Assembly (NCBI GenBank): GCA_964459095.1
Contig: CAYWKL010000001.1
Coordinates: 21,253-85,252, forward strand
Reading direction: 5' to 3'
Length of the DNA stretch: 64,000 nt
From: an uncultured Gammaproteobacteria bacterium
Lineage (GTDB): Bacteria > Patescibacteriota > Microgenomatia > Daviesbacterales > UBA10151
The notes beneath the pieces are model-generated. The model made no database searches. It worked only from the letters and a program-made list of their open reading frames with translations, and had not been told where the DNA came from. This document shows, piece by piece, positions 6,666-61,373 of the stretch (position 1 is its first letter; each line of letters opens with the position of its first letter). A program made the position numbers and the translations under genes.

Positions 6666-9401
6666 ATGCTAAGAAAATTTAGCTCAAAAATCTTTAAGTT
6701 CATAAATAATCATTTCTCACTTTTTTTATTGGCTGTAGTGTTTATCTCTTTAGGACAAATGATTTTTATGGATGTGTGGCAGGATGACCAAGCCCTTTTT
6801 TTTAAATTGGCCCACATAAATGAGCCAGCGGGATTCTTTGGGGATGGACCGTTTGGTGCAGGGCCCTATCGATATGCTGCTACCCCATTTATTCCGATTT
6901 ACCACTTCTTTAAATTTAACACTTACGCCTATTTTGCTTTTATGCTCACTTTATACGGTCTTGCAACCATTGCTTTATATAAAACTTTTAAACTTATTTT
7001 AGGAGATACTGCTGGAAAAGTTTCGGGATTCTTATTTGCAGCAGGGTACATAACTTCTGATGGCGCTTACAGAATGGCAAATAGTGTAACTACTAGTTTC
7101 TCAGTTATATTTGTGTCTTTAATTCTCTATTCTTACTGGAAATATTTAAGAAAAAGAGGAACTGTTTGGTATATTCTTGCACTTATCTTTTTCTTTCTAT
7201 CTCAAGAACTGGCTATTACAAGGATGCATTATTTTTTTGCAGTAATAATTATATTTGAGATTATTTTTTTTATCTGGGGGAGTTCAATCAAAAAAATATC
7301 CTTTGTAATTTTAAGATTAATCCCATTTTTTATAGTTTTTTATCATTACATGATTTCTGGTGGAGATCCACGAGTTGGAGAGTCTTCAAGTTATTTTTTT
7401 GCATTTCTAAACAATAAATTCTATTTATATTATGGATTTTTTGCATCCCTAGCTAATTTAATAATTCCTGACTGGCTACTTAAACCTATTTTCAATTTTT
7501 TATCTCAAGGCTCTAATTTAGGACTTTCAAATATTTCAAGATTAACACTTATTTTCTTGGTGCTTTTTTCTGCAACTGCTATTTTTTTTATTTTTAAAAA
7601 GAGTTTGAAGATTAAGATAACTTCATTTATCTTAATTATAAGTTGGCTCCTTTGGGCTAAAAACATTTTTAACACTCCTTTTTTAAGTCTTTCACCTTCT
7701 GATTTTTTTTCAGCTTATATAGGCGGAATAATATTAATAATTTATAGCTTAGGTATTTTTTACTTTGAGAGGTTTAAAAAAATTCTCATTTTTCTAGGAT
7801 TTTGGCTTGTGGGAAATATCATTGCATACTCAGCTTACTTCCCAACAGTTGCGTATGAAACAACTAACAGATATTTAACACATTCATTTCTGCCATTAGT
7901 AGCTATATACGGATTAATATTTAGCATTTGCATAAAAAAGAAGGGTTTTACTAAATATATAGCTTATTTAATTATGGTGATTGCCTTTCTTAATATTTTC
8001 GCTTCAATTCAATATCAGCAAAATATCCTAATTAGCAGAAGCTTTAAAACCAAGAGTTTTTATAGCCAGCTAAAAACTTTGCTCCCTGAAATAAAAAAGG
8101 GTGACATTATATTCTTTGATCTTGCTGATTCAAACCAAGGGATATATAAAGATGCTATCTCTGCCGCGATGATGCCCGATACTACCTCGTTTGCATGGAG
8201 ATATGGGATTGATAGGTATGATTTTAAGTTAACAAATGATTTCAATGAGTTATTAAAAATATTCTCTGATGAGAAAAAAAATCCCCAGCAAGTCCACTCT
8301 TTTTGGTTTTCAGGTAAAGACTTAGTTTCAACTTCCAAAGATGTAAGAAAATACTTACAGGGATCTCTAAATGTAGAAAAAGATATTGATCTTAACTTAA
8401 CATCAAATGCTCAATTAGAAAATAAAAACGACTCAACTTTATATAGTCAAGAAGATATTAAAATTGATTTTGAAGACCCAATTAAAAATTTGGTTCCATT
8501 AACTTTAAGTTTAATTATAAAAGCTAATCCTTTAGACTTAAGAGATCTGAAATTTCCACTAATAAACACTGCTTTAAATGAACCAACAAAAGTAAAATAT
8601 AGTTTGCTAGGTGTTAATGAAATTCTACATTTTTTTGAGTATCAAAAATTCAAGAATTCCTTCTATCAAAATTTAAAGTTAAAAACTTCAAGTAACTGGC
8701 AGGATAGAGTTTTAGAGAACTTGATGGATCAGGACTCATCTAGTGTTTGGCAATCTGATAGAGTTCTATGGAGGGATAACAGAGCTCTTGTAGAAATAGA
8801 ACTTCCGACCGAAAGTACGCTTAGTAAATTAGTTTGGGTAAATGGTTTTCCTAACAACACACCTATTTCCTATTCAATTGAAAGTTCCCTAGATGGAAAA
8901 AATTGGACTCAGGTATTAATAGTAAATAAAAATGAAAAAATAATTGACACAAGACCTCAAATAGTTAGTTTTAAACCTACAAAGGTAAAGCATATTCGTA
9001 TGGTTATAACAGCTACAATTGGAGGGGACTCCCCTAGCCTGTCAGAAATTTGGGTAGTTCCTTCAAGATTTAACGATTTGGAAATAGAAGAAGCTGAAAA
9101 TTATTTAACAAATCCCTTTCTGTATATCAGCGAAAAGAGCCATTTCTTCAACTTACTTAACTTAACCTCAAATACAGGCAAGACATCGCTTTATTGGAAA
9201 AATGATAAAAGTGAAGCTTTTCAAACAAGTAAAGATACACAAATTAATATAATCTATGATGGAATACCAAGAGTATACGAAACCCCTATTCCCGCAGGAG
9301 GATTAAACCTTTCAAGTATCATGTTATCGAATTTTACTATCCCCGGAGATATATCAATATTAAATATCAGCTCTTCAGTAAAGCCATTGAAAAAATTATG
9401 A
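6666..9401 (+). CDS. Large polytopic membrane protein (GT-C-like?) with a C-terminal F5/8-type-C (discoidin)-like carbohydrate-binding domain
   Basis: About 450 aa of hydrophobic helices with 'DVWQDDQ' near the N-terminus. The C-terminal domain 'SSSVWQSD…LVEIELPTESTLSKLVWVNGF…YSIESSLDGKNWTQ' matches the discoidin pattern. Confidence 0.55.
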   Translation: MLRKFSSKIFKFINNHFSLFLLAVVFISLGQMIFMDVWQDDQALFFKLAHINEPAGFFGDGPFGAGPYRYAATPFIPIYHFFKFNTYAYFAFMLTLYGLATIALYKTFKLILGDTAGKVSGFLFAAGYITSDGAYRMANSVTTSFSVIFVSLILYSYWKYLRKRGTVWYILALIFFFLSQELAITRMHYFFAVIIIFEIIFFIWGSSIKKISFVILRLIPFFIVFYHYMISGGDPRVGESSSYFFAFLNNKFYLYYGFFASLANLIIPDWLLKPIFNFLSQGSNLGLSNISRLTLIFLVLFSATAIFFIFKKSLKIKITSFILIISWLLWAKNIFNTPFLSLSPSDFFSAYIGGIILIIYSLGIFYFERFKKILIFLGFWLVGNIIAYSAYFPTVAYETTNRYLTHSFLPLVAIYGLIFSICIKKKGFTKYIAYLIMVIAFLNIFASIQYQQNILISRSFKTKSFYSQLKTLLPEIKKGDIIFFDLADSNQGIYKDAISAAMMPDTTSFAWRYGIDRYDFKLTNDFNELLKIFSDEKKNPQQVHSFWFSGKDLVSTSKDVRKYLQGSLNVEKDIDLNLTSNAQLENKNDSTLYSQEDIKIDFEDPIKNLVPLTLSLIIKANPLDLRDLKFPLINTALNEPTKVKYSLLGVNEILHFFEYQKFKNSFYQNLKLKTSSNWQDRVLENLMDQDSSSVWQSDRVLWRDNRALVEIELPTESTLSKLVWVNGFPNNTPISYSIESSLDGKNWTQVLIVNKNEKIIDTRPQIVSFKPTKVKHIRMVITATIGGDSPSLSEIWVVPSRFNDLEIEEAENYLTNPFLYISEKSHFFNLLNLTSNTGKTSLYWKNDKSEAFQTSKDTQINIIYDGIPRVYETPIPAGGLNLSSIMLSNFTIPGDISILNISSSVKPLKKL

Positions 9402-9935
9402 TTTCAATTGTTTAAGCAAGTCTTTAACACTGTCAATATTTATTTGGATATCTTTTTGTTGTGCACTTGGAACACTTATTTTAATTGAGTTAAGAACAAT
9501 AAGTTGTTTATCTAGGGACTCAATAATTTTTATCTTAAGTAAATCTGCTGTTTCATTATCTTCTCTGGATAGTTCTTCATATAAAGAAACAGCATTTTTT
9601 CTTCTGTTTTGAGCATTGCTCATGGTTTTCAATGCGTTACTATAACCTTTATTATTGTATAAATATTCACCTTCTATCAATCTCTTTTCAGATAAAGTTA
9701 AACTATATTCTGCTTTATTCGTTTTGCCAAACGTTATTAACTCTCTAATTGACTCTTTAAATTGTTTTAGTGGATAAAGCGGATCACCTAGCACCTTACC
9801 AGGAGTTATAGGAAAAAAGAGTTCATATGAGCTAGGAGGTGTTGCAGTTTTTTCTGCTTGGGCTTCCACCCTACCTACAATAAATATACCTGTAAACAAA
9901 AGGAGCGAAACAATGAATAAGTTAAGAATCTTCAT
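9396..9935 (-). CDS. Secreted hypothetical protein (signal peptide + coiled/low-complexity region)
   Basis: 'MKILNLFIVSLLLFTGIFIVGRVEAQAEK' looks like a signal peptide. No catalytic motifs. Confidence 0.5.
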   Translation of the reverse strand: MKILNLFIVSLLLFTGIFIVGRVEAQAEKTATPPSSYELFFPITPGKVLGDPLYPLKQFKESIRELITFGKTNKAEYSLTLSEKRLIEGEYLYNNKGYSNALKTMSNAQNRRKNAVSLYEELSREDNETADLLKIKIIESLDKQLIVLNSIKISVPSAQQKDIQINIDSVKDLLKQLKS

Positions 9936-10716
9936 CTTTAACTACAATATAGGAGATGTACATAGATGGTGTCAATAACCAATAAAAATAACTATCAAGT
10001 TTTTTTACAATCTTTAAACTCTCTCTGAGAAGTCTTTTATTTATAAGTCCTATCAATATTTCTGCAGGTAGAAATAATGTCCACACAGGGAGTCCTCTTG
10101 TAGTCAAAAGTTTAAACCCTTGCGTCCTTAGCAACTTAACTATATCCTTTTTGTAAAAACTTGTTGATTCAATTTCGGCAAAACTACTTCCTCTTAGTAA
10201 TGGTATTAAGCCTCCTAAATTTATAATGTTATACCCAATACTGTTTCTTTCTATTAATATTACTTTTCCATTCTTTTTTAGAATTTCTTTAATTTTTTTT
10301 ATAACTTTTATTTGCTCATTGAGGACTGTGATATACATCAGAGTTGTCACAATAATTATTACATCAAAACTTAGCGGTTTAAATTTAATTTCTTTTATAT
10401 CTCCAACATAAGCTTTAGCTCTTGGATTTAAAGAATTGTTGTAAATGTCAACGTAAGTTTTAGCAATGTCGATGCCGATTATATTTGCTTTTGGAAAATC
10501 TTTCAAAATTCTTTTTGATATTCTTCCAAATCCGCAGCCGAGATCTAAAATCTTTACTTTCTTTTCCTCATCAATTGCATTTTTAATAACCTCATACATC
10601 CATTCATCTAAATAGTCATTTACATACCTGGGTAAGGATTTGGGTAATACACCCTCAATTTTATCTTTATATTTTTTACTTCTTTCTTCCCAAGCACTAG
10701 TAATTTTGGCTTTCAT
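9922..10716 (-). CDS. Class I SAM-dependent methyltransferase
   Basis: Motif I 'ILDLGCGFGRISKRIL'. Also 'NIIGIDIAKTYVD' and 'VIIIVTTLMYI'. Confidence 0.7.
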   Translation of the reverse strand: MKAKITSAWEERSKKYKDKIEGVLPKSLPRYVNDYLDEWMYEVIKNAIDEEKKVKILDLGCGFGRISKRILKDFPKANIIGIDIAKTYVDIYNNSLNPRAKAYVGDIKEIKFKPLSFDVIIIVTTLMYITVLNEQIKVIKKIKEILKKNGKVILIERNSIGYNIINLGGLIPLLRGSSFAEIESTSFYKKDIVKLLRTQGFKLLTTRGLPVWTLFLPAEILIGLINKRLLRESLKIVKKLDSYFYWLLTPSMYISYIVVKDEDS

Positions 10717-11627
10717 TTTTTCAATTTTAGAGAAACTAAAACAAGAAATACACTCATCTCTGCTATTGTTAGTAAAAAACGAAATGCCAATGCGATTCCT
10801 GATGCTAGGCTAAGTGGAATCTGCGCATAGATACTTAAAAAATAAGCTAGGGAAACCTCAGTTACTCCAAGGCCTCCAGGAGCAATAATTGTTAGGTATC
10901 CAATTAACCAAGAGAAAGCATAAATTCCTGAAATAGTGAGAAGATTTAAATCTAGTTTATGAAGAAAGGCATATTGAATAAGGATAAGTCCGAGTCCATT
11001 GAGAACAAAGTTAAATACAAAAAAAGGGGAAGGGAGTAAAAGATTCCTATTATTTGGCAAGTTACCTCTTTCACCCACATCCTTTTTTGCAAGTTTCAGA
11101 AGTGTATTTAGAATTTTCCTACTTATGAATGGCATTAGTGTTAAGCTGCCTGCTATAAGAAAGAAAAACATAATAAACTTTACTTGGGATGAAGGTATAA
11201 TAAATTCAAGAGCGAATAAAGAAACAAAACAAGCAGCAAGAACAGATAAAAAAATCTCCTGAACTAAAGAAATGAGAGTTTTTTCCCTAGATATACTAAG
11301 CTCGCTTTTAGCAAGTTCTATCCTTCCTAAATATTGCCATACAGTTCCTGGTATGTACCTTGATGTAAGAGAAATTATCCATACACGTAAAGCTACAATT
11401 AGCTTAATTTTCCTGTCTCTTATTAGTAAATACCAACAGAAAGCAGCTTCTGGATAAACAAAAAGTAAAACTATAAATGAAACTGCTAAAATAGCGATGT
11501 CAAGATTTTGTAAATATCTTTCAAATTGAGCCCAATTTAACAACACATTCCTTAGAAGAAAGGAGAGTAAAAGAATAGGAATTAATACTTTAAAGATTGC
11601 CTTAAGTTTGCTTAAATCATTAAACAT
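10713..11627 (-). CDS. Flippase-like integral membrane protein (lysyl-phosphatidylglycerol-synthase TM-region family, UPF0104-like)
   Basis: Eight-helix hydrophobic profile. 'IAPGGLGVTEVSLAYFLS' (P-G-G-x-G-x-x-E) and 'RYIPGTVWQYLGR'. Confidence 0.55.
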   Translation of the reverse strand: MFNDLSKLKAIFKVLIPILLLSFLLRNVLLNWAQFERYLQNLDIAILAVSFIVLLFVYPEAAFCWYLLIRDRKIKLIVALRVWIISLTSRYIPGTVWQYLGRIELAKSELSISREKTLISLVQEIFLSVLAACFVSLFALEFIIPSSQVKFIMFFFLIAGSLTLMPFISRKILNTLLKLAKKDVGERGNLPNNRNLLLPSPFFVFNFVLNGLGLILIQYAFLHKLDLNLLTISGIYAFSWLIGYLTIIAPGGLGVTEVSLAYFLSIYAQIPLSLASGIALAFRFLLTIAEMSVFLVLVSLKLKK

Positions 11628-11681
11628 ATCAAAAACTCAACAATTGTATACTAAACTAAACCAATAGTATATTTAAGAAAA

Positions 11682-12851
11682 ATGTCACACTTTCACTCCC
11701 TTTATAGACAATTAAAAAATAAATTTCAAAAAAGCAATTTATTTAAACCCATTTCCTTTTTGTTACTTTTTTCCATCCCGAGCGTGTTAGTTACTTTTTT
11801 TTTACTTGAAATATTTGTAAGAATTTTTCTTCCAGTAAGCGATGCCCCAGATATTTACTTTGACCCAAACTTGGGAAATATATTTGTTCCAAACCAAAAA
11901 GGTGTTTTTGTCAAAGGAAAAAGTAGCGAAATCAAGGCCAAATATAATATTAATAACAAAGGCTGGAATTCCCCCTATGACTATGGGTACGAGAAACCCA
12001 CAGATACAATAAGAATTGCTGTTATTGGAGATTCCTATATCGAAGCTTTGCAAGTTGATTATGATAAATCCTATCCTTATTTACTAGAGAATTTACTGAA
12101 TAAGAATGACAATCACGGAAAGAAAGTTCAGGTTTATACTTTTGGACATTCTGGAGCAAATCTTTTCCACTACCAAAGCATCCTTACTGAAGTAGTTAAA
12201 AAATATAATCCGAACTTTGTAATTATTAACATAGTTTTAAATGACTTTGATGAAAGCTTTTACGGACTAAGCAGAAAAGATAACTGGTCCTTAATTTATG
12301 AGGATTCTAAGTTTAAAAAAGTCTTTCCAAAAGAAGTTAGTAATTTGCCTCTTAAAAAATTTCTTAGACACTCTGCAATTGTAAGATATCTGACTATAAA
12401 TCTCGATCTAGTCAATACTTCACCAATTTTCAACAAACTTTTTTATGCAGAAACAAGAAATTACAACAAAAATGAAACTCCTAAACAAATCGATAAAAAG
12501 ACTATTGCTTTATTGATTCGCTTTGTTTTAGAGAATATCAATAAAGAAAACAAACAAAATAATATAAAAACCATACTTATATTGGATACAGATAAGAAAA
12601 AAGTTTACGAAAATAATTACACCTTTAAAAATTTTTACATTTCAGAAACTAAGAATATTGCTCAACAGTTAGGGATACCTATTCTAAATCTTGAAGAAGT
12701 ATTTGAAAAGGATTGGAAAAATAATCATATGAGATTTAATTTCGAATTTGATGAGCATTGGAATGAATATGGTCATAAAACAATAGCTAATGCCCTTTTT
12801 GAGTTTTTAGACAAAAGGAATTTATATCTTAAGATTTTTGAGAGCAATTAG
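11682..12851 (+). CDS. Membrane-anchored SGNH/GDSL hydrolase-fold protein, AlgX/AlgJ-like glycan O-acyltransferase candidate
   Basis: N-terminal TM helix. Block I 'IAVIGDSYIEA'. 'VLNDF'. C-terminal 'FDEHWNEYGH' resembles the D-x-H-W signature of AlgX/AlgJ. Confidence 0.5.
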   Translation: MSHFHSLYRQLKNKFQKSNLFKPISFLLLFSIPSVLVTFFLLEIFVRIFLPVSDAPDIYFDPNLGNIFVPNQKGVFVKGKSSEIKAKYNINNKGWNSPYDYGYEKPTDTIRIAVIGDSYIEALQVDYDKSYPYLLENLLNKNDNHGKKVQVYTFGHSGANLFHYQSILTEVVKKYNPNFVIINIVLNDFDESFYGLSRKDNWSLIYEDSKFKKVFPKEVSNLPLKKFLRHSAIVRYLTINLDLVNTSPIFNKLFYAETRNYNKNETPKQIDKKTIALLIRFVLENINKENKQNNIKTILILDTDKKKVYENNYTFKNFYISETKNIAQQLGIPILNLEEVFEKDWKNNHMRFNFEFDEHWNEYGHKTIANALFEFLDKRNLYLKIFESN

Positions 12852-13937
12852 ACTTTTTGACGATGCTTTTTCCCAAGTAAACTGTCTTCCCCACTTAAGA
12901 GCTCCTTTAGACAACTGGTGATAAAGTTTTTTATTGGTTATTAATTTGTGAATTTCATTGGCTAAATCAACAGGACTTCTTTTAGTAATTATTCCACTTA
13001 TCCCATGCTTTACTGAATCTACCAAACCAGCAGATTTGTAAGCAACAACTGGAGTCCCTGCAATATTAGCTTCTATATTAACAAGTCCCCAACCTTCTCT
13101 TTTAGAGGGGTTTACTAATATATGAGCTTTTGACAATAATTCAAATTTCTTTTTTTCATCAATATGTCCTAAAAATTTAATCTTTTTTTTGAAATAAGCT
13201 TTTTCTACCTTCTTTTTTATTTTTTTCTCATACTCTTTTGTCTCCCCTTTTCCTACAACCCAAAAGGAATAATTCTTATTTTTTTTATATAGAAGTTCAA
13301 AGGTTTTAAGAACGTCTTCCATTCCTTTATCTCTTGATAATCTTCCCAAATACATTATGGTTGGGTTTTTCTCTTTCTTGTTTTTTTTGAATTTCACTAC
13401 ACTTACACCGTGATGGATTACATAAATATTACTTTTTTTGATACCAAAGGAAATTAAATCTTTTTTTGTAGAATCGGAAGCAGTAATAAAGATAGTATTT
13501 TTATATATACTAAATATAAGAGGTTCCAAAAGGTAACCTAACAATCCAACAATAAAATTTATTGGGAATTTAAAATGATTGAAGAACCATACTTCTTTTG
13601 CTACTTCCTGGATAATCGCCAATTTAGGATTTTTAACATATAAGGGTGTAAAAAAAGGGATTCCATGAAACTGATCTATTATCAAGTCAAAATTCTTTTT
13701 GTTTTTCAAGTAAAAAAATAACGCAGCAAGCTGAACACCCAAGTATTGATTCCCTTTCCTTATAATTTCTACCTGATCAATATTCTCTTTTCCCCTTGAA
13801 TTTTCAAATCTTGAAGAAAGAAGGGTTACTTTATGCCCTTTTTTTATCCACCCTTTAGAGTGTTCATGAATACTTTGTTCTGCACCTCCTGCTAAGGGGT
13901 GTTTGGGATCTCGCCAAGAAAGAATTAGAATATTCAT
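12822..13937 (-). CDS. GT4-family (GT-B) glycosyltransferase
   Basis: 'WRDPKHPLAGGAEQ' N-terminus. E-x7-E region 'EGWGLVNIEANIAGTPVVA'. Confidence 0.85.
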   Translation of the reverse strand: MNILILSWRDPKHPLAGGAEQSIHEHSKGWIKKGHKVTLLSSRFENSRGKENIDQVEIIRKGNQYLGVQLAALFFYLKNKKNFDLIIDQFHGIPFFTPLYVKNPKLAIIQEVAKEVWFFNHFKFPINFIVGLLGYLLEPLIFSIYKNTIFITASDSTKKDLISFGIKKSNIYVIHHGVSVVKFKKNKKEKNPTIMYLGRLSRDKGMEDVLKTFELLYKKNKNYSFWVVGKGETKEYEKKIKKKVEKAYFKKKIKFLGHIDEKKKFELLSKAHILVNPSKREGWGLVNIEANIAGTPVVAYKSAGLVDSVKHGISGIITKRSPVDLANEIHKLITNKKLYHQLSKGALKWGRQFTWEKASSKSLIALKNLKI

Positions 13938-13945
13938 TGCAAGAC

Positions 13946-15967: not shown

Positions 15968-16710
15968 CTTTTTATATGTTTCCTAGTGTAGAAATTAGTT
16001 TTTAATCTAAAATATACTCCTAAAGTATCCAAAAACATCCGAAAAATTGTTTTCCAAGAAATCCTACTGGTTTTTTTATCAAATTTAACTTCTAAAGGCG
16101 CTTCAAATATTCTCTTAAATCCCAAAGCTCTTGCAACTGCTAAAAGCTCTATATCCATTGCATATTTTTTCACAAACATTCTTGGTAGGACCTTTTTTAT
16201 CACATTTCTTTTAAATATTTTTATTCCACTTTGAGTATCAGTTAAAGGAAGTCCAAATAACGCCTTAACAAATATATGATAACCAATGCTTAAAGTTCTT
16301 CTTAGGAGTGGATAATTTACCCTTGAAACAGGATGCCTTTTTGAACCAATAATTATATCTGCATTATACCAAGTCATATGCGACATCAACATCATAATAC
16401 TAGCCGGGGAAATTTCTCTTCCTGCATCTATAAATGAAACGAGCTCTCCCCTACTTCTCATAATCCCATACCTTACCGCAAATCCCTTACCCCTATTTTG
16501 AGGGTAGTCAAAAATTCTAATCCTCTTTGATTTTAAATTTTTTACTTTTCTTTTAGTCTCTTCAGGATCACCATCGATCACACAAATAATTTCAAAATTA
16601 AAATTTTTTAGCCCTTCTAGTAAAACTTTTTCTATAGTTTGTAAATCTTTTCTTAAAGTTCTTGCCTGTTTGTAAGCGGGTACGATAACTGATAGTAATT
16701 TCTTTCTCAT
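15964..16710 (-). CDS. GT2-family glycosyltransferase
   Basis: 'LSVIVPAYKQARTL', 'ICVIDGDPEETK'. 248 aa. Confidence 0.8.
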   Translation of the reverse strand: MRKKLLSVIVPAYKQARTLRKDLQTIEKVLLEGLKNFNFEIICVIDGDPEETKRKVKNLKSKRIRIFDYPQNRGKGFAVRYGIMRSRGELVSFIDAGREISPASIMMLMSHMTWYNADIIIGSKRHPVSRVNYPLLRRTLSIGYHIFVKALFGLPLTDTQSGIKIFKRNVIKKVLPRMFVKKYAMDIELLAVARALGFKRIFEAPLEVKFDKKTSRISWKTIFRMFLDTLGVYFRLKTNFYTRKHIKR

Positions 16711-33430: not shown

Positions 33431-33441
33431 CTTTTATCAAC

Positions 33442-34920: not shown

Positions 34921-34923
34921 TTA

Positions 34924-39172: not shown

Positions 39173-39192
39173 TATTAAAATTTATCATATCA

Positions 39193-54072: not shown

Positions 54073-55750
54073 AAAAAAGAAAAACTACAAATACTAAGCT
54101 GGTTAAGGTTAAATAATCTCCGATACTTCTAATGAAAGTATTTGTAAGTCTTGCTTCTATTATATGACGGCCAGGGCTAACATCAAAAGTAATTAAACCT
54201 AAACAAAACTCTTGCCTCCTACAATCATTATAAATGTGTTTTACTTCTTTCCCATCAATAAAAACTTTCATCCCTGGGAAATGAAATAAGGGAAGGCGCA
54301 ATCTAGATTTTTCGAAAACTAAAATTTCTCCTTTCTGCGAACTGGCTTTTTTTACATAACTAATAAAATCAACATCACCACTCATTACCTCGGGCAATTT
54401 CGGAGCTTTTTCTATTGGAGGAAGTTTTGCATAAATTGGTAAGTAGTCAAAAATACTAATTGTTAATTGTTTCTCCCAAAGGTTTCCTGAGAATTTATCT
54501 TTGTCAGAAATATTTAACCATTTTAAAGGTTGAAAAAAGCTTGCGTACATAACAAATGCAATAACTACTGATAGTATCCCAACAACTAAAGAAGCTATAT
54601 TACTTTTTTTAAAATGCAGTTTAGAAATTTGATAAATTGAGATTGCGCTTAATGCGGAGAGTAAAAAAATACTGACTGCATTAAATCTCCATGGAAACTG
54701 CAGGTAAGTTAAGAAGGGAATTGGCGACCAAAGAAAAGAAGATTTTTGGTGCATCATAAAAAGAACCAAAAGTTCAACCATTGATAAAACAAAAGTAAGT
54801 ATTGCCAATTCCTTATTTTTCCTAAAATTTACAATCCCTAGAATTACCGCTAATAAAGAAAGAACCCACTGAACATGCCCGGTTGTTAGGGATAAATCGT
54901 CTCCAGGCCCTAAATAAGAAGATCCAAACCCCCAGTGATTTGAGATAAACAATTGATAAACGTCCACAAAGTGTTGTCTATAATCAAAATACCCTCCTAA
55001 AAGGGACTCTGTATGAGCAAATTGTCTCTCAAATAAAACAGGTAATGTAAAAAAAGCGGCAAGTCCTAAGCCAAAAAGCCCTGACAAACCAATTTTAATA
55101 GTCTCTTTCCATTTTTTTTCTAAAATTATTAAAGATAAAATCCAAATTCCTAAAACAGGAAAAAATATCAAAGACATTAAGTTATGGGTTGTAAGTAGAA
55201 GTGCAACAGATATTGCAAAAAAACAAAAATAATTTAATCCTCTTTTCTTGATTAGCATATAAGATGACCAAAAAAGTAATGGAAAAAAGACTAACGCCCA
55301 AAACTCACTCATTGCTCCCCTTACATAAACCTCAACTGCTTTATAAGGAATATATGTATAAAGAAGGGTTCCAACAAATCCCGGCCAAATACCTAAAAAA
55401 TTTCTCAAAAACAAAAACATTGCAAAAGCACTAAAGACAAACCCCACTGCAAAAAGTATTTTTACAGAATCTATAAATTGGAATCCTATTAAGTGAATTA
55501 TTTCTCCTAGATAATAAACACCTGGAGGGTAATATATAAATTGCGGGTAACCGTACTGATAACCTGGATCAGGAACCCATCTACAAGGAAATTGTAATTC
55601 TTGAAAGCATTTGTCCATTTCAAAAATCCTAAAAGCTTGCAGATCATCTTGCATTGGGAAAAATCCTGGGCGCACCAAGCTATAAAAGGTAGGAATTGTA
55701 AAAATAAAAAGTAAAATCCAAACAAAGATCTTAGGTTTTAAGATATTCAT
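54041..55750 (-). CDS. Same family, tandem paralog C
   Basis: 'PGFFPMQDDLQAFRIFEMDKCFQELQFPCRWVPDPGYQYGYPQFIY'. Confidence 0.5.
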   Translation of the reverse strand: MNILKPKIFVWILLFIFTIPTFYSLVRPGFFPMQDDLQAFRIFEMDKCFQELQFPCRWVPDPGYQYGYPQFIYYPPGVYYLGEIIHLIGFQFIDSVKILFAVGFVFSAFAMFLFLRNFLGIWPGFVGTLLYTYIPYKAVEVYVRGAMSEFWALVFFPLLFWSSYMLIKKRGLNYFCFFAISVALLLTTHNLMSLIFFPVLGIWILSLIILEKKWKETIKIGLSGLFGLGLAAFFTLPVLFERQFAHTESLLGGYFDYRQHFVDVYQLFISNHWGFGSSYLGPGDDLSLTTGHVQWVLSLLAVILGIVNFRKNKELAILTFVLSMVELLVLFMMHQKSSFLWSPIPFLTYLQFPWRFNAVSIFLLSALSAISIYQISKLHFKKSNIASLVVGILSVVIAFVMYASFFQPLKWLNISDKDKFSGNLWEKQLTISIFDYLPIYAKLPPIEKAPKLPEVMSGDVDFISYVKKASSQKGEILVFEKSRLRLPLFHFPGMKVFIDGKEVKHIYNDCRRQEFCLGLITFDVSPGRHIIEARLTNTFIRSIGDYLTLTSLVFVVFLFYVYYSKKKIY

Positions 55751-57276
55751 TTTGCAGGTGTTACTTTAAAAAGTAAAATTGATAAAGGAGGTGCTTTAAA
55801 ACCCTCTGCTTTAGGATAATCTTTAATCAGAGTAAATCCCTCTTCAAAATTAGATAGGTTCTGAGCGTTAGCTACATAAAAAGTGGGAACTTCTTTTGCA
55901 GTTATCCTTAAATCCTTAGGAAAATCCTTATTGCTTGGGGCAATTTTAATATTGGTATTTTTATCCAAATAAATTTGTAGGCCATCTGGCAGAGTCCCGA
56001 ATGTCCCTTGTGCTCCAACAACAATTTCCCTACCGCCTGACTCACTTTTCAAATAATTTGCTATTTCCTTTAAACCATAACCAGCTGTCCAGTCCTCTAG
56101 ATACCCTCTTCTTTCGTTTTTGGGTAAGGGGGTTTTTGAGGGATTAGCTAAAACATAATAATTAAAATAAGCAGTTTGAGGAAGAATTAGTAAAAGAAAG
56201 ATCAAAATCTTAATCAATGATTTTATTTTTAACTTTCTGTCTATTTCAGATATTACCCAGGCCGCTATAACAAGAAGCGGGGGGATTGAAAATAAAATAT
56301 ACCTTGCTGTAAAAGTTCTTAAGAATGCCATTTCAATAAGTAGCGGAATTAGCGCCCAAGCGCAAACAGCTAAAGCACTTCTGTTTCTTAAAACAAAACT
56401 TAAAAAAATTCCTGAAATAATAAGGACCAAAATAGGTATTGTTATTATTTTAGGAAACCAGTCTATTAAATCATTTAAATGAGGTATAAAAGGATCCAGG
56501 GGTCTTGGTATCAATTCCTGGACAGAAAAGATATAGTCTTGATTTCTTAAGCTTAATGAAGAAAATCCTGGCCCAAGTCTTAAAAGATTGTACATCATCA
56601 ACCCAATCAGAATAGAAACAATAAAAAATCCAATTGATTTAAAAAATCTCTTAGTTAAAATTCTTTTTGAAAAATTAAAGGTAAAAAAAACTGCAGGGAT
56701 AGATAAAAAATTAAACATTCCTGGAGTTTTAGTTAAATAACCTCCTCCTAAAATAAATCCTAAAATCAAGCTTAAGTCGAGTCTTGGATTTTTAATAAGT
56801 AAAAGAGAAAAAATTAAGGCCCAAATTGAAAAAAAAGAAAGCATTGAATCAACCAAAGCCATCCTGTCAAAAAAGATCACCATAGGAGTTATAACTATTA
56901 AAAAACCTGCCCAAAGTCCTACTTGTCTGTTAAAAAATTTCCAACCTAAAAATATTGCTCCTAAAAAAGTTAATAAACCTGAAAAAACTGAAAGTATTCT
57001 CCCTGCAAATAAAGGATCTGAAAAAACTTTAAACATTGGCATCAATACCCACATAAAAAGTGGTGTTTTCCCATCAGATAAAGGAAGAAATCGCAAAGTT
57101 GGCTCTGCTCTCATAACTTGTGCCCATCTTATATAGATTGCCTCATCTGCAAAAATTGGCTGAAGAGTTAAATTAGGGAGTCTTAAGACAAAATATGAAA
57201 TACAAAGAAAAAATAAAATAATTAAAGAAAATTTATTTTTTTTAAAAAAATAGCGCATTTTAACTGTATCTTCCAA
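55747..57276 (-). CDS. GT-C glycosyltransferase, ArnT-like (GT83-type)
   Basis: 'LTLQPIFADEAIYIRWAQVM' resembles the ArnT D-E-x-R/Y loop. Polytopic. Sits directly upstream of a DPM1-like GT2. Confidence 0.65.
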   Translation of the reverse strand: MEDTVKMRYFFKKNKFSLIILFFLCISYFVLRLPNLTLQPIFADEAIYIRWAQVMRAEPTLRFLPLSDGKTPLFMWVLMPMFKVFSDPLFAGRILSVFSGLLTFLGAIFLGWKFFNRQVGLWAGFLIVITPMVIFFDRMALVDSMLSFFSIWALIFSLLLIKNPRLDLSLILGFILGGGYLTKTPGMFNFLSIPAVFFTFNFSKRILTKRFFKSIGFFIVSILIGLMMYNLLRLGPGFSSLSLRNQDYIFSVQELIPRPLDPFIPHLNDLIDWFPKIITIPILVLIISGIFLSFVLRNRSALAVCAWALIPLLIEMAFLRTFTARYILFSIPPLLVIAAWVISEIDRKLKIKSLIKILIFLLLILPQTAYFNYYVLANPSKTPLPKNERRGYLEDWTAGYGLKEIANYLKSESGGREIVVGAQGTFGTLPDGLQIYLDKNTNIKIAPSNKDFPKDLRITAKEVPTFYVANAQNLSNFEEGFTLIKDYPKAEGFKAPPLSILLFKVTPAK

Positions 57277-58006
57277 CTAAATCATTTATCCTAATTCTGA
57301 ACATATCATAAATTGCGGCCAGAGCATCTTTTACAACTTGCACTCTTTCTGTATCTACATAATTCCAGGTAACTTCAACTTCTGCAATTTTAAACCCGTA
57401 TTTTTTTGCCAAATATAAAAGTTCTACGTCAAAGCCAGCATTAACTGCCCCACCGCTAAAGTGTACTACTCCCCACTCTTTTTCTATTTTGGGAATAATT
57501 TTATCAATTGAGGATCTGTTAAAAGCTTTAAAACCACACTGCGTATCTGAAAAAGGTAATCCTAAAATTATTCCTCTTAAAACTGAGAAACCCCAAGCTG
57601 CAATAACTCGAATTGCTGGGGCTCCTTTTCTTCCTTTTCTTGATCCGATCACTAAATTAAAACCATCTTCAAACTTAGGGAGAAATTTTTCTATTTCAGA
57701 AATTGGAGTAGCTTGATCCATATCTGTAAAAAGCACAATTTCTCCTTTTGATCTGAGTAAACCTGTTAAAACTGCTTTTGCCTTACCACCATGAGAATTT
57801 TCTATCAACCTAAAGTTTTGATATTTTTTTGTTTCCTCGTTTATAAGTTCTATCGAATCATCACTAGACCCATCATCAACAACAATTATCTCATATGTGT
57901 ATTTCTGATCCTTTAAGTAGTCAAAAACTTTCTCTAAACTTCCTTTCCTTATATTACTTGCTTCATTGTAGGAAGGTATAACAATTGACAGAATTACTTT
58001 TTCCAT
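57260..58006 (-). CDS. GT2 DPM1/ArnC-like polyprenyl-phosphate sugar synthase
   Basis: 'LSIVIPSYNEASNIRKGSLEKVFDYL…IIVVDDGSSDDS…LFTDMDQATP'. Confidence 0.8.
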   Translation of the reverse strand: MEKVILSIVIPSYNEASNIRKGSLEKVFDYLKDQKYTYEIIVVDDGSSDDSIELINEETKKYQNFRLIENSHGGKAKAVLTGLLRSKGEIVLFTDMDQATPISEIEKFLPKFEDGFNLVIGSRKGRKGAPAIRVIAAWGFSVLRGIILGLPFSDTQCGFKAFNRSSIDKIIPKIEKEWGVVHFSGGAVNAGFDVELLYLAKKYGFKIAEVEVTWNYVDTERVQVVKDALAAIYDMFRIRINDLVGRYS

Positions 58007-59503
58007 TTAATTAGGACTACCTCCTGGGTTAGGAACTAACTTAAAAACTTTTACCCCATCAACATTTTCCTCATTTTCTATTTTTGCATATCCAAAAGCA
58101 GATATCTCATATTTAGGGTGGTTTATTGGGTTACACACTTTATCCTCACAAACAACAAAAAGCTGGCCAGTGTTAGCCTCGCTTAAATGTTTTGGAGGGT
58201 TCCCTAATTTGTAAAGATAAAATTGATAAGCTGAGTCATAATTTCTCTCTGCAATTAAAGCAAAATTAAAGGCTTCACCTTTTGATTTTTTAAATATATA
58301 TTCTGAGATCATTTTTGTTTTTAGGTATTGATTATTTGGAGGAATAAATAATGGGCTATTTATTAAGCTGATATAACCAACAACTAATATAGCTAAAACA
58401 ACAAATGGAAATTTAAAAGGTTTCTTAATTATAAAAATAAATGCGCCTAGTAGTAGATAAGGTGTCGGATTTAAAAAACCTAAGTAATGATCATAAACAG
58501 CTTGTCTATAAAGGGAAAGTCCTATTAAACCAAAAACCAACCAGCAACTTAATAGCAAAATAGGGTAATTAATTTTTTTGTATCTAACGAAGTTATATAA
58601 ATTGGTAAAAATCGGGATAGCAATGATTACGGACAGTACCCAAATTACAAAACTTATACCTGAAGCTATATACCTTCCAATTAAATTATCTGAATAGATT
58701 GGCAAAAACCTAATAATTGGCGAAGCCAGCTCTTTATCTATTGGGGTCTCTTTTCCAGAAATTATATTCATTAAGGATCGAAAATTTAAAAAATTATACT
58801 TAAAATCAAAAATTACAAGGGGCAGCATTAAAAAAATAAACGAAAGTATCCCGAGTGAAGTTCCTAAAAATAAAGACTTTTTAGGCAATTTTCTTGATGC
58901 TTCATAAAAATAAAAAACTATTATTGTAGGAAGTAATAGAAGAGCTAAATAGTGCATTTGGATTGCAAAAGCGAACGCTATTCCTATTAAAACAAACCAT
59001 CTAAAATCGCCAGTTTTATGGATTTTATACAAACCAAGAATTACAAGGGAGGCAAAAAAAGGTTCAGGGTTAGGATTCCATGAGGATTTAGAATAAATTA
59101 TATTTACTGGTGAAATTGAATAAGTTAAAGATGCTAGTATGGCTGGCAAAAATCCAAACCAAGATCTTGAAAGATAATAAATCAGAACAACAGTTAAACT
59201 GCCAATTAGTGCAACCATTCCTGCTGCTCCAACTGGATCAAGCCAAAAAATTGCCATAGGAACACTCATCATGTAGTAATAAAGAGGGCCTAAATACATA
59301 TTTCCTACTGAAGTAGGGGGACCAAGCAAAGGATAATCTTTGTCCACTAAAATTTTCTTAACCACCAAAGCGTCTCTTCCTTCATCACCTAAAAAGGTCA
59401 TGTACTCATCCAGACGATAAAAACGAAAGAAAATAGTGATAAGAATTATTAGTGCAAAAACTAAAACTTCTAATTTATGTTTATTTATTTTTTCGATAAT
59501 CAT
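58007..59503 (-). CDS. GT-C glycosyltransferase-like, PMT_2-type
   Basis: 'FLGDEGRDALVVKKILVDKDYPLLGPPTSVGNMYLGPLYYY'. Confidence 0.55.
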   Translation of the reverse strand: MIIEKINKHKLEVLVFALIILITIFFRFYRLDEYMTFLGDEGRDALVVKKILVDKDYPLLGPPTSVGNMYLGPLYYYMMSVPMAIFWLDPVGAAGMVALIGSLTVVLIYYLSRSWFGFLPAILASLTYSISPVNIIYSKSSWNPNPEPFFASLVILGLYKIHKTGDFRWFVLIGIAFAFAIQMHYLALLLLPTIIVFYFYEASRKLPKKSLFLGTSLGILSFIFLMLPLVIFDFKYNFLNFRSLMNIISGKETPIDKELASPIIRFLPIYSDNLIGRYIASGISFVIWVLSVIIAIPIFTNLYNFVRYKKINYPILLLSCWLVFGLIGLSLYRQAVYDHYLGFLNPTPYLLLGAFIFIIKKPFKFPFVVLAILVVGYISLINSPLFIPPNNQYLKTKMISEYIFKKSKGEAFNFALIAERNYDSAYQFYLYKLGNPPKHLSEANTGQLFVVCEDKVCNPINHPKYEISAFGYAKIENEENVDGVKVFKLVPNPGGSPN

Positions 59504-60204
59504 CTTAGGCGGTATTTAATCCAAAATTTGACCAAATCAATAAAAGAATTAATTATGACTTTTAAACTTGCTCCAGTTGGTTTGCCGAAAAGCCTTGGAT
59601 AGTGATTTACACCAATTTGAACAATATTAAATCCATATTTTTCTGCCTTTATAACAAGCTCTGCATTAATCATCCCCCCTCTTGTTGACTCAAGGTGAGG
59701 AATTGTGTCTAGGAATCTCTTACTTACTATTTTAAAACCGCAGTCTACATCCTTGAGCTTTAATCCAAAAAAAATAAAAAGTAAAATTGCCCACCCTTTT
59801 GCGATTACTAAACGAATAAACGGATCATTTCTTTTTATTCTATATCCAATGATTAAATCTGCCTCAAAAGTTTTGTCTATAAATTTAGTTACCTCAGAAA
59901 AATCAAACTGTCCGTCAGCGTCCGTGTATGTAATCCAATCAAATTTGGATTGATAAAATCCAGCCTGCAGCGCAGCACCATACCCTCCATTTCTTTGATG
60001 AATCACCTTAATTTTGTCGTGTTTTTTAGCGTAGTTTTCTGCTTTTTCCCCTGTTTTGTCTCTTGAGCCATCATCAACAACAATTATCTCGTAGTCCTCA
60101 AGGTCAAGATTTTCCAGCACTTTTTGGGCTTTTTCAACAGTTGAAACAATATTCCCCTCTTCATTAAAGCATGGAAAAAAGACAGAAAGCTTTTGAACAG
60201 ACAT
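59500..60204 (-). CDS. GT2 DPM1/ArnC-like polyprenyl-phosphate sugar synthase
   Basis: 'LSVFFPCFNEEGNIVSTVEKA…IIVVDDGSRDKTGEKA…TDADGQF'. The longest ORF extends to 60240. That would overlap the divergent plus-strand gene, so the Met at 60204 is preferred. Confidence 0.75.
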   Translation of the reverse strand: MSVQKLSVFFPCFNEEGNIVSTVEKAQKVLENLDLEDYEIIVVDDGSRDKTGEKAENYAKKHDKIKVIHQRNGGYGAALQAGFYQSKFDWITYTDADGQFDFSEVTKFIDKTFEADLIIGYRIKRNDPFIRLVIAKGWAILLFIFFGLKLKDVDCGFKIVSKRFLDTIPHLESTRGGMINAELVIKAEKYGFNIVQIGVNHYPRLFGKPTGASLKVIINSFIDLVKFWIKYRLR

Positions 60205-60227
60205 GTTTACTATGCTAACATCAAATT

Positions 60228-61373
60228 GTGTCCAAAACAATTAAAAATCTATTAATTTTGAGTCTAACAGCAATATTTCTAACTATACTTATTTGGCTTC
60301 CGTCAATTTTGGGGTTGAAGAATTTTTATTACATGGATTTTTCGCAAGGTTTCGCGAATATTTATAGAAATTATGATGGTCTTGAATATATAGTAATTGC
60401 AAAAACATTCTATAATCCAACATTAATAGCTAATCTTGGCCAGACTCTTCCTGCAAATTATTATGCTGCCCATTTCCCAGGATATTCATTTCTAATTTTG
60501 ATCTTTGCACCAGTTTTTGGAATGTTAAAGTCTATGCTTTTTGTTTCAAGTTTATTCACGATTCTTTCAGTGTGGGCTTTTTATTTTTTGGTTAAAGACT
60601 TTAAACTCTCGTCTAATCCGCTTTTGCTCTCCATAATTTTTCTTATTCTTCCTGCAAGGTGGCTTATTGTACACTCGATTGGCTCCTCAGAACCCATATT
60701 TATTTTCTTCATAATCTTAGCACTTTATTTTTTCATGAAATTTGAAGAGATTCCAAAACAAAAGTTTATCTGGGCTGCAGCATTTTTTGGTTTAGGAGCA
60801 CAGATAACAAGACCTCCTGGGATTTTACTTTTTGCCTGTCTAGGACTTTACTTAATATGGAAATATCGGGAAAAAATCCTTACTAAAATTTGGAAGTTTT
60901 ATCCCCTTTTACTTATTTCTTTAGGATTACTGGGCGTATTTTATTGGTATTTACTTTCTTATGGTGATTTTTGGGCATATTTTAAAAGTGGAGACAATAT
61001 TCATTTATTATTTCCCCCATTCCAGGTATTTAACTCAAACCAGTTTTGGGTTGGGCAGCATTGGTTGGAAGATATAATTTTAGTTTTTATTTTAGGACTA
61101 TATGGTGGAATTTTACTTATAAAACAAAAACTTCTGCCTTTAGGATTTTTTGTATTAATTTATATTACAGCGTCCTTTTTTGTAGCTCATAGAGATATAA
61201 GTAGATACACACTCCCAGTTTTTCCATTTGTTTTAATTGCATTTGAAAAAGTTTTAGTAAGCAGAGAGTTTAGATTAGTTTTGATAATTTTAGCGCTAGC
61301 TATTTACCTTTATGTCCAAAATTTTATATTAAATAATATTGCACCAATTCCTAATTTAAAGGTTTTTGATTAA
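60228..61373 (+). CDS. Polytopic membrane protein, PIG-V/DUF2029-like GT-C candidate (paralogous motif to 17991..19151)
   Basis: 'YDGLEYIVIAKTFY' parallels 'FDGEHFISIAVNGY'. GTG start at 60228, with an in-frame TAA 12 nt upstream. Confidence 0.45.
   Translation: MSKTIKNLLILSLTAIFLTILIWLPSILGLKNFYYMDFSQGFANIYRNYDGLEYIVIAKTFYNPTLIANLGQTLPANYYAAHFPGYSFLILIFAPVFGMLKSMLFVSSLFTILSVWAFYFLVKDFKLSSNPLLLSIIFLILPARWLIVHSIGSSEPIFIFFIILALYFFMKFEEIPKQKFIWAAAFFGLGAQITRPPGILLFACLGLYLIWKYREKILTKIWKFYPLLLISLGLLGVFYWYLLSYGDFWAYFKSGDNIHLLFPPFQVFNSNQFWVGQHWLEDIILVFILGLYGGILLIKQKLLPLGFFVLIYITASFFVAHRDISRYTLPVFPFVLIAFEKVLVSREFRLVLIILALAIYLYVQNFILNNIAPIPNLKVFD

Follow-up and report, generated by a model that had tools for sequence, protein, structure and literature searches.

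We examined a 64-kb stretch of DNA (contig CAYWKL010000001.1; hereafter the window, with positions counted from its first nucleotide) in which genes for polytopic membrane glycosyltransferases of the GT-C fold class are concentrated between 9396 and 61373. The G+C content is 30-34% across the window, no tRNA gene was found within it, and it holds 50 substantial open reading frames (ORFs), which we named g01 to g50 in coordinate order. Together with crude counts of transmembrane (TM) helices, these ORFs gave 24 polytopic membrane proteins. Genes g02 to g08 lie on the plus strand (856-9401). On the minus strand, 35 genes run from g47 to g13 (60240 down to 12822) in an operon-like array that spans 47.4 kb, where neighbors mostly overlap by 1-32 nt or else are separated by gaps of at most 39 bp, apart from two longer overlaps (g25/g24 and g18/g17). 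At one end of this array g48 is transcribed divergently from g47; at the other, g12 is a lone plus-strand gene, beyond which g09 to g11 lie on the same strand as the array.

Membrane glycosyltransferases of the array

An earlier reading of the sequence (the original prediction) had proposed about 20 GT-C proteins between 9.4 and 61.4 kb, and this was borne out: the combined evidence from Pfam, profiles, homology, and fold gave 20 GT-C genes in 9396-61373. The 911-aa product of g08 (6666-9401), proposed as an additional GT-C protein, became the 21st through profile comparison (hhalign 97.6% to the PMT_2-like family, E 3.6e-12) and a structure model that combines GT-C and CBM32 domains. By sum of lengths, the 20 genes occupy about 63% of the interval, some 10,900 codons in all, and all GT-C ORFs are intact. 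They comprise 12 PMT/PMT_2 genes, g32, three PTPS_related/YfhO-like genes, one PIG-V-like gene, one GT87-like gene, and the pair g37/g38, which was assigned by structure; sequence evidence alone gives 18, and g37 and g38 raise the total to 20. The 21 enzymes represent six lineages. The GT-C genes other than g08 and the pair g37/g38 are listed here, with orthologs cited from L001 (GCA_040960095.1) and from L003 and L005 (both GCA_016184225.1, contiguous over 36.5 kb).

17991..19241, minus strand: g17, PIG-V/Mannosyl_trans2-like GT-C (Pfam, 33.9 bits; orthologs 43-45% identical)
21028..27378, minus strand: g20, g21, g22, and g23, PMT_2/PMT-like GT-C paralogs with a WDE or RDE first-loop motif (Pfam), 28-36% identical to one another
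28029..29450, minus strand: g25, PMT_2-like GT-C (Pfam, 42.8 bits; L001 ortholog 60% identical)
30213..34920, minus strand: g27, g28, and g29, PMT_2-like GT-C paralogs with HDE, EEE, and GDE motifs (Pfam)
36875..38362, minus strand: g32, divergent PMT_2-like GT-C (BLAST to g46, 1e-14; hhalign 94.1%)
40966..42582, minus strand: g36, PMT_2-like GT-C (Pfam, 39.3 bits)
49481..50752, minus strand: g40, GT87/PIG-M-like GT-C (via orthologs)
50742..55750, minus strand: g41, g42, and g43, PTPS_related/YfhO-like GT-C paralogs with a DD motif (Pfam on g42, 40.5 bits)
55747..57276, minus strand: g44, PMT_2/PMT-like GT-C with an ADE motif (Pfam; hhalign 97.9%)
58007..59503, minus strand: g46, PMT_2-like GT-C with a GDE motif (Pfam; hhalign 98.4%)
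60228..61373, plus strand: g48, PMT_2-like GT-C, divergently transcribed (Pfam, 37.1 bits)

At or above the Pfam gathering scores (PMT_2, 26.1 bits; PMT, 22.7; Mannosyl_trans2, 22.4; PTPS_related, 26.4), PMT_2 was found in g20, g21, g23, g25, g27, g28, g29, g36, g44, g46, and g48, and PMT (PF02366) in g22 and g44. With no Pfam match of its own, g32 joins the PMT_2-like family through its BLAST similarity to g46 and through profile comparison. Likewise g40 has no Pfam match itself; many of its orthologs (46-55% identical) carry PF09594 (GT87), PF05007 (PIG-M), or PF06728. BLAST identities were 22-36% among eight PMT_2-like paralogs (g20 to g23, g27 to g29, and g36), with g44, g46, g32, and g25 as outliers, and 30-36% among g41, g42, and g43 in all-against-all comparison. 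Searched against PDB sequences, the profile of the PMT_2-like family matched ArnT (5ezm, E 3.6e-7) and STT3 (0.003). Comparisons by hhalign to this family gave 88% for g25 and 95.7% for the g41-g43 family, alongside the 94% (g32) and 98% (g44 and g46) detailed above; as negative controls, both Wzx proteins stayed below 3% against the GT-C families. No window protein matched a Pfam family of the Emb/Aft type.

The acidic first-loop motifs were present as originally described: WDE, RDE, HDE, GDE, ADE, EEE, or LEE in the PMT_2-like genes, DD in the PTPS_related genes and g08, and HDG in g37 and g38. Alignment of the eight PMT_2-like paralogs with their orthologs showed D36 to be near-invariant and E37 invariant. 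Lys or Arg residues occur in the tails that precede the first helix in g08 and in the PMT_2-like and PTPS_related proteins, and this, together with the loop pattern of g37 given below, points to an outside position of the acidic loop, which homology also supports. None of the outcomes that would have counted against the original prediction was seen.

Several features of these ORFs concern gene calling. The longest-ORF start of g17 (17991-19241) creates a 107-nt overlap with g18 and a Lys/Arg-rich N-terminal tail of 44 residues, and a 13-nt overlap (60228-60240) joins the 5' ends of the divergent genes g47, which begins with TTG, and g48, which begins with GTG; the true start codons of all three genes probably lie downstream of the longest-ORF starts. 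Two plus-strand ORFs, at 34403-34945 (180 aa, largely within g29) and 48564-49079 (171 aa, wholly within g39), are probably not genes but shadow ORFs antisense to AT-rich coding sequence.

The g37/g38 family

Two of the GT-C genes, g37 and g38, belong to a family that Pfam does not recognize, and the N-terminal domain of g38 recurs as a separate protein, g14.

42579..44567, minus strand: g37, Pfam-less GT-C with a modeled fold like that of oligosaccharyltransferases (OSTs)
44560..47982, minus strand: g38, 1140-aa fusion of a g14-like N-terminal extracytoplasmic domain (about residues 3-405) with a g37-family GT-C (about 582-1112)
13946..15967, minus strand: g14, secreted or anchored 673-aa protein whose C terminus carries a membrane anchor; over residues 2-396 it shares 39% identity with the N-terminal part of g38

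Neither g37 nor g38 matched Pfam, even at E values up to 10, or NCBIfam, and a 31-sequence profile of their family returned no OST from PDB sequences at E values up to 10. All 120 of the 120 homologs listed lack Pfam domains, and the few among them that carry names are called 'hypothetical protein [Candidatus Daviesbacteria]' or, in one case, 'Actinobacteria bacterium'. By BLAST, the C-terminal half of g38 is 33% identical to g37 and its N-terminal 400 residues are 39% identical to g14; the L003 ortholog of g38 is 51% identical. Comparison of the family by hhalign gave a weak result against the PMT_2-like family (14.9%) and a moderate one against the g08 family (78%), and for this reason its assignment to GT-C rests on structure.

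An AlphaFold2 model of g37, built on the homolog alignment, reached a pLDDT of 84.7 and a pTM of 0.89. In a Foldseek search with this model, every one of the first eleven matches was an OST catalytic subunit (E 4e-9 to 8e-7, TM-score about 0.41-0.50), with a probability of 1.00 for GT-C enzymes and at most 0.12 for transporters. The model matched GT-C enzymes only; among its structural matches are AftA, AftB, and AftD, a likeness that is general to GT-C enzymes. As modeled, g37 begins with three additional TM helices, carries the invariant motif H-D140-G-x-W-H in its first external loop, and continues through a core of about 13 TM helices to an alpha/beta domain at the C terminus (528-661); the 13-TM core and a mixed alpha/beta C-terminal domain of the AglB/PglB type are those of OST architecture. 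By sequence, g37 and g38 showed neither the Pfam STT3 family (PF02516) nor similarity to solved OSTs. On this model, then, g37 and g38 belong to the GT-C enzymes and in architecture come nearest to oligosaccharyltransferases; by sequence they are not OST members. Lys and Arg counts in the first four segments of g37 (0, 3, 0, and 5), followed by the 77-residue loop that holds the HDG motif, indicate three extra N-terminal helices with the N terminus outside, which would place the HDG loop outside as well.

Within the family, D140, W143, and H144 of that loop are invariant, and D140 is kept in 106 of 107 members. Other invariants are N170-Y-H172, D176, E252, W256, N266-P-P268, K309, W368, R379, R389, R420, Q460, Q469, Y578, and D591. 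The A-W-Y-D-T-G-Y stretch of g37 was considered as a counterpart of the OST WWDYG motif and rejected: the Trp is missing in the g38 subfamily and across the 107 homologs. The g37 subfamily has A/N-W-Y-D-T-G-Y and the g38 subfamily AYDTSSY or VYDSTAY; the Trp falls below 93% conservation over the 107 sequences, only Y578 and D591 being kept there. A 'D-E-x-Q-x-x-I' stretch resembles the OST DK/MI motif loosely.

The extracytoplasmic domain of about 400 residues thus occurs in two forms, stand-alone in g14 and fused ahead of the GT-C part of g38, and matches nothing in Pfam or NCBIfam in either; the remainder of g14 likewise has no family match there. A full-length g14 homolog (41% identity) adjoins g37/g38-family genes in the locus L029. 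This domain could bind or process the acceptor.

Candidate donor synthases, Wzx-like flippases, and conservation across Microgenomates

The GT-C genes are interleaved with soluble glycosyltransferases and flippases, and g02 to g08 lie on the opposite strand.

856..5524, plus strand: g02 to g06, nucleotide amino-sugar synthesis genes (Pfam, NCBIfam)
5532..6653, plus strand: g07, fusion of a hexapeptide acyltransferase with an ArnC-like GT2, candidate polyprenyl-P amino-sugar synthase (Pfam)
6666..9401, plus strand: g08, 911 aa, GT-C membrane domain (about 1-470) and extracytoplasmic domains including CBM32/F5-8 type C (673-789)
12822..13937, minus strand: g13, Leloir glycosyltransferase of family GT4, with which the 35-gene array ends (Pfam; L001/L005 ortholog 50% identical)
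15964..16710, minus strand: g15, short GT2, polyprenyl-P-sugar-synthase-like (Pfam; best NCBIfam PpgS; 31% identical to g45)
16750..18003, minus strand: g16, Wzx-like MOP flippase (Pfam Polysacc_synt, 62.7 bits)
19135..21041, minus strand: g18 (GT4) and g19 (GT2), Leloir glycosyltransferases (Pfam)
29467..30216, minus strand: g26, short GT2, DPMS/AglJ-like candidate polyprenyl-P-sugar synthase (NCBIfam AglJ, PpgS)
34924..36893, minus strand: g30 (GT2, rhamnosyltransferase-like) and g31 (GT4) (Pfam, NCBIfam)
38363..40943, minus strand: g33, g34, and g35, GT2 Leloir glycosyltransferases (Pfam, NCBIfam; orthologs 51-64% identical)
47975..49453, minus strand: g39, Wzx-like MOP flippase, immediately upstream of g38 (Pfam Polysacc_synt_3, 189 bits)
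57260..58006, minus strand: g45, short GT2, GtrB/ArnC/PgfS-like candidate polyprenyl-P-sugar synthase (NCBIfam PgfS, best, and ArnC)
59500..60240, minus strand: g47, short ArnC-like GT2, first gene of the 35-gene array (best NCBIfam ArnC, 74 bits)
62386..63567, minus strand: g50, GT2 with a GtrA/DPMS four-helix TM domain, the architecture of Dol-P-Man synthases

The claim that GT2 enzymes resembling polyprenyl-P-sugar synthases are co-encoded with the membrane proteins held, best matches being of the ArnC, GtrB, and DPMS types. There are six GtrB/ArnC/DPMS-like GT2 genes in the window, four within 9396-61373 (g15, g26, g45, and g47) and two just outside it (g07 and g50), and by BLAST the six form one similarity group. 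Their best NCBIfam models are ArnC, PgfS, PpgS, AglJ, and a haloarchaeal dolichyl-phosphate hexose transferase. Among PDB entries, g26 matched the P. furiosus Dol-P-Man synthase (5mlz) and nothing else, and g45 matched GtrB (5ekp, 4.7e-14), ArnC (9bhc, 2.8e-13), and 5mlz. For g50, Pfam returned Glycos_transf_2 (80.5 bits) with GtrA_DPMS_TM (70.4 bits), and its best NCBIfam model is AglJ; this fusion is the sole occurrence of the GtrA_DPMS_TM domain in the window, and g16 and g39 are its MOP/Wzx-like proteins. Five other GT2 genes (g19, g30, g33, g34, and g35) and three GT4 genes (g13, g18, and g31) look like ordinary Leloir enzymes. The earlier count of five donor-type and nine other GT2/GT4 enzymes with two Wzx proteins is recovered once g07 and g50 are included; within the interval the numbers are four, eight, and two. 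Donor-type GT2 genes adjoin GT-C genes in g47-g46-g45-g44, g27-g26-g25, and g07-g08, and this interleaving gives indirect support to the reading that the GT-C enzymes use polyprenyl-phosphate-linked sugar donors.

Products of g02 to g06 are a GFO/IDH/MocA oxidoreductase (best NCBIfam match, UDP-GlcNAc 3-dehydrogenase), a hexapeptide N-acetyltransferase of the NeuD/PglD type, two DegT/PseC/ArnB-like aminotransferases, and a short-chain dehydrogenase/reductase (SDR) family dehydratase/epimerase; all NCBIfam matches fall under equivalog cut-offs. Genes g02 to g04 resemble the trio of UDP-GlcNAc 3-dehydrogenase, N-acetyltransferase, and aminotransferase. A self-contained Arn-like module, g05 to g08 (3436-9401), lies on the strand opposite the array in the order SDR dehydratase/epimerase, ArnB/PseC-like aminotransferase, N-acyltransferase-ArnC-like GT2 fusion, and GT-C with CBM32, and this combination reproduces the logic of the Arn pathway. 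The fusion in g07 (best NCBIfam ArnC PRK10714, 73 bits; 34% identical to g47) is unusual. The CBM32 module suggests that the acceptor of at least g08 may be a glycan, the argument also made from the carbohydrate-binding module (CBM) of a GT136 enzyme (PMC11127046). The g08 family has 356 cluster representatives among 1.84 billion.

Source-named homologs come mostly from Candidatus Daviesbacteria (46-66% identity), and the orthologs of g22 (61-66%) are named 'glycosyltransferase family 39 protein [Candidatus Daviesbacteria]', in agreement with the resemblance to Patescibacteria first seen in the AT-rich, tightly packed sequence. The host is a small-genome groundwater bacterium of the candidate phyla radiation (CPR). 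Record titles are misleading here: many GTDB representative contigs with the supercluster (L006, L008, L010, L014-L016, L020, and others) are titled 'uncultured Gammaproteobacteria bacterium isolate binchicken_...', and titles of some homologs as 'Actinobacteria bacterium' are likewise placeholder names. The locus, at about 55 kb, takes up about 5% of a genome of about 1 Mb; related Woesebacteria chromosomes measure 0.98 and 1.08 Mb.

L001 and L003/L005 carry the same genes as the window in nearly the same order. One-to-one orthologs are syntenic and 37-69% identical and paralogs 22-36%, so the duplications are old and each copy has been retained. We then scanned one genome per GTDB species for the motifs of the g37/g38 family and recovered 60 loci from Daviesbacteria, Woesebacteria, and other Microgenomates (about 60 species), with 7-13 GT-C ORFs per 22-kb stretch in recurring orders. 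Among related loci that contain a Wzx, a g39-type Wzx lies directly beside a g38-type gene on the same strand in 25 of 27. Local content differs between genomes, g23, g24, g40, and g25 having been gained, lost, or moved. The GT-C supercluster is a lineage-wide trait of Microgenomates and not a curiosity of a single genome. The divergent PMT_2-like pair g46/g48 (58007-61373) is also divergent in L045 (17467-20068) and L052 (13149-15767), at identities of 33%/43% and 36%/46%, respectively.

The remaining genes of the locus are these.

9396..11627, minus strand: g09 (DUF5667, N-terminal anchor), g10 (S-adenosylmethionine methyltransferase), and g11 (304 aa, about 9 TM) (Pfam)
11682..12851, plus strand: g12, weak SGNH/GDSL-like protein with an N-terminal TM helix (Pfam below gathering score; NCBIfam)
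27382..28101, minus strand: g24, 239 aa, about 7 TM (weak similarity to the C-terminal TM portion of PMT_2-like proteins, hhalign 59.9%)

The small, N-terminally anchored DUF5667 protein g09 (9396-9935) sits at the cluster edge and has kin in L001 (9480-9968) and L002 (414-902), where the gene adjoins the g22 ortholog on its upstream side, in divergent orientation; this suggests a conserved association with glycosylation genes. On sequence, g12 is a possible glycan O-acyl esterase or transferase. No family match was found for g11 (10713-11627), and hhalign against all GT-C families here returned nothing; a possible likeness to MprF-type flippase domains found no support from the tools used. 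With no match in Pfam or NCBIfam, g24 was considered as a GT-C pseudogene remnant, against which a 32% identical homolog of similar length in L036 argues that it is a real small membrane protein. Either g11 or g24 could be a missing flippase or accessory subunit.

Proposed function and alternatives

Given this inventory, we favor, with some reserve, the reading that the locus assembles a complex envelope glycoconjugate outside the cytoplasm, in assembly-line fashion, and is the core envelope-glycan locus of Candidatus Daviesbacteria, most sugars being joined on the outer side of the cytoplasmic membrane. Genes g02 to g06 would make nucleotide-activated N-acetylated amino sugars. On the cytoplasmic face, g07, g15, g26, g45, g47, and g50 would, by homology, each load a single sugar onto polyprenyl phosphate, and the eight Leloir GT2/GT4 enzymes would assemble a lipid-linked oligosaccharide (LLO) primer. 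Export of the lipid-linked sugars would be the task of g16 and g39, the Wzx-like MOP flippases, and of the GtrA-type domain in g50, and on the outer face each of the 21 GT-C enzymes, placed here by family and fold, would attach one defined sugar or linkage through its first-loop acidic residue. The OST-like pair g38/g37, directly behind the Wzx gene g39, would be the best candidate for transfer of the primer onto the final acceptor, which may be a wall polymer, a lipid anchor, or a surface protein. From the CBM32 of g08 and the number of enzymes, we favor a large glycan over simple protein O-mannosylation. Since syntenic orthologs are closer than paralogs and the acidic motif is kept in all paralogs, the genes look like a fixed pathway and not drifting duplicates.

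The original prediction named mycobacterial lipoarabinomannan (LAM) and arabinogalactan (AG) assembly and PMT/Ppm1 protein O-mannosylation as the closest precedents. With the OST-like fold of g37/g38, archaeal and eukaryote-type LLO pathways and bacterial three-component systems, discussed below, are at least as close as LAM and AG assembly. As in the mycobacterial and corynebacterial lipomannan, LAM, and AG pathways (PimE, MptA-C, EmbA-C, AftA-D, and Ppm1) and Pmt, many GT-C enzymes would extend a glycan outside the membrane from polyprenyl-P-sugars, and the GT87-like g40 (via orthologs), short Ppm1/PpgS-like GT2 enzymes, PMT-family members, and structural matches to AftA, AftB, and AftD all have counterparts there. 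Unlike those systems, the locus has no Emb/Aft-type Pfam family and belongs to a different taxon and envelope; in mycobacteria the genes lie dispersed through 4.4 Mb of genome, whereas the locus gathers its own into one operon-like array of about 48 kb in a genome of about 1 Mb. Wzx/Wzy O-antigen and capsule clusters similarly group nucleotide-sugar genes, GT2 and GT4 enzymes, and Wzx, but in the window GT-C enzymes dominate and phosphoglycosyltransferase, Wzy, Wzz or another polysaccharide copolymerase, and ligase were not detected. The locus shares the implied chemistry of known systems and differs from them in scale, single-array organization, taxon, and a sequence-orphan OST-like family.

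Several points weigh against the assembly-line reading. Beyond fold and family, the whole mechanism is our inference. The NCBIfam scores of the GT2 enzymes are all far under equivalog cut-offs, and two or three flippase candidates face six donor synthases. Pfam found no initiating phosphoglycosyltransferase (Bac_transf, or Glycos_transf_4 of the MraY/WecA type), Wzy_C, Wzz, or chain-length regulator in the 50 window proteins, and the gene tables of L001, L003, and L005 likewise contain no phosphoglycosyltransferase, Wzy, or chain-length regulator. This is a real gap in the account of the lipid-linked primer, one that would close if an AglJ-like GT2 initiates on polyprenyl monophosphate or if the phosphoglycosyltransferase and Wzy genes lie elsewhere in the genome. 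Positive-inside parity over all loops, with helices from a Kyte-Doolittle scan that missed some of them, was 160 for even against 146 for odd loops, and g11, g14, and g24 have no assigned role.

The prediction had left open whether the system makes a surface glycan or O-glycosylates proteins; O-glycosylation is one option only. There is some chance, well short of an even one, that the PMT_2/GT39-like and YfhO-like GT-C enzymes O-glycosylate Ser/Thr-rich surface proteins (S-layer, pili, or membrane-anchored) from polyprenyl-P-sugars, with paralogs serving different sugars, elongation steps, or protein targets, along the lines of actinobacterial Pmt, streptococcal PgfS/PgfM1, and GtrB/PgtC2. In streptococci, PgfS with the GT-C enzyme PgfM1, and GtrB with a YfhO-family GT-C, glycosylate Ser/Thr-rich disordered protein regions (PMC12041528), and these precedents lend weight to the idea, as do the family 39 names of g22 orthologs, the passage of g22 and g44 over the PF02366 threshold, PgfS as the best NCBIfam match of g45, and the nearness of the g37/g38 fold to enzymes that act on proteins. 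However, there is no Ser/Thr-rich acceptor in the window (Ser plus Thr is 10-17% in g01, g09, g12, g14, and g49), g08 has a glycan-binding CBM32 module, and 21 GT-C enzymes with eight Leloir glycosyltransferases and two Wzx proteins far exceed the needs of known O-mannosylation systems. Transferases of the ArnT type, acting on lipids and glycans, also fall within PMT_2, and among solved structures it is ArnT rather than Pmt that gives the best sequence match.

We consider it unlikely, though worth setting out, that the locus is a CPR version of the archaeal and eukaryote-style LLO pathway. AglJ/DPMS-like GT2 enzymes would start on polyprenyl monophosphate without a phosphoglycosyltransferase, Leloir enzymes would extend the glycan, a Wzx-like protein would export it, and its en bloc transfer to surface proteins or another acceptor would fall to g38/g37, after which about 18 ALG/AglS-like GT-C enzymes would elaborate it outside from polyprenyl-P-sugars. 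The inventory parallels, step by step, the archaeal Agl pathway (Haloferax volcanii AglJ/G/I/E, AglD, AglR, AglS, and AglB; PMC3871713) and eukaryotic ALG/OST: AglJ/DPMS-like GT2 enzymes (AglJ being the best NCBIfam match of g26 and g50), GT2/GT4 enzymes that could extend a polyprenyl-monophosphate glycan in the absence of a phosphoglycosyltransferase, a flippase of the Wzx type (compare AglR), outside GT-C enzymes using lipid-P-monosaccharides (compare AglS and ALG3/9/12), and an STT3/AglB-fold enzyme down to the AglB-type C-terminal domain. What separates them is that g37 and g38 have no sequence similarity to STT3, AglB, or PglB and no family-wide WWDYG, and that the host is a bacterium. 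If true, bacteria would have a third route to OST-type glycosylation, with a new GT-C family as a sequence-orphan relative of STT3/AglB.

It seems rather improbable that the genes are independent three-component modules (GT2, flippase, and GT-C), each attaching a side-branch sugar to a polymer synthesized elsewhere in the genome (a teichoic-acid-like polymer, for instance, or a glycan linked to peptidoglycan), with no single assembly line. Three-component systems (GtrA/GtrB/Gtr; CsbB/GtcA/YfhO; ArnC/ArnEF/ArnT; GT136 pentofuranose, PMC11127046) join a GT2 synthase, a GtrA-type or MOP/MATE flippase, and a GT-C with a first-loop acid and sometimes a C-terminal CBM, as in g08; g05 to g08 mirror Arn logic, and GT2 genes resembling polyprenyl-P-sugar synthases adjoin GT-C genes here as well (g47-g46, g45-g44, g26-g25, and g07-g08). 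The module view gains from the wide occurrence of such systems with flippases of the MOP/MATE or GtrA type and a C-terminal CBM on the GT-C enzyme (PMC11127046; PMC7389260), and from the local variation in gene content (g23, g24, g40, and g25). Known systems, however, have one GT-C per module and decorate a separately made polymer, whereas here 21 GT-C enzymes of six lineages share one array with six synthases, in runs of three to five without a GT2 of their own, and the co-directional, tightly packed array with its order conserved in Microgenomates fits one pathway better.

That the membrane proteins are not glycosyltransferases at all (transporters, for example) or are mostly decaying duplicates is effectively refuted: although seven membrane ORFs have no Pfam match of their own and single-sequence searches against PDB sequences were empty (phmmer with g22, g37, and g42 gave nothing useful), profile, transitive-homology, and fold evidence puts five of the seven, and likewise g08, in GT-C, no member models as a transporter, the ORFs are intact with 37-69% identical orthologs, and the acidic motifs are retained.

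No description of the locus was found in the searched literature on glycosylation and glycosyltransferases of CPR, Patescibacteria, Microgenomates, Daviesbacteria, and Woesebacteria, in keeping with its having been called undescribed, and public annotations of its proteins go no further than 'glycosyltransferase family 39 protein' or 'hypothetical protein'. The families could annotate 'hypothetical proteins' in thousands of metagenome-assembled genomes, and about 20 distinct candidate polyprenyl-phosphate-dependent transferases offer a resource for glycoengineering. The g37/g38 family, tightly linked to a Wzx flippase, is a concrete candidate for a new class of glycan-transfer enzyme.

Members of CPR/Patescibacteria have genomes of about 1 Mb from which most biosynthetic pathways are absent, and 21 GT-C enzymes are comparable to the whole GT-C set of Mycobacterium tuberculosis. 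An investment of about 5% of the genome implies a complex surface glycoconjugate that is central to these uncultured, probably episymbiotic cells, where it may act in host attachment, phage defense, or envelope integrity.

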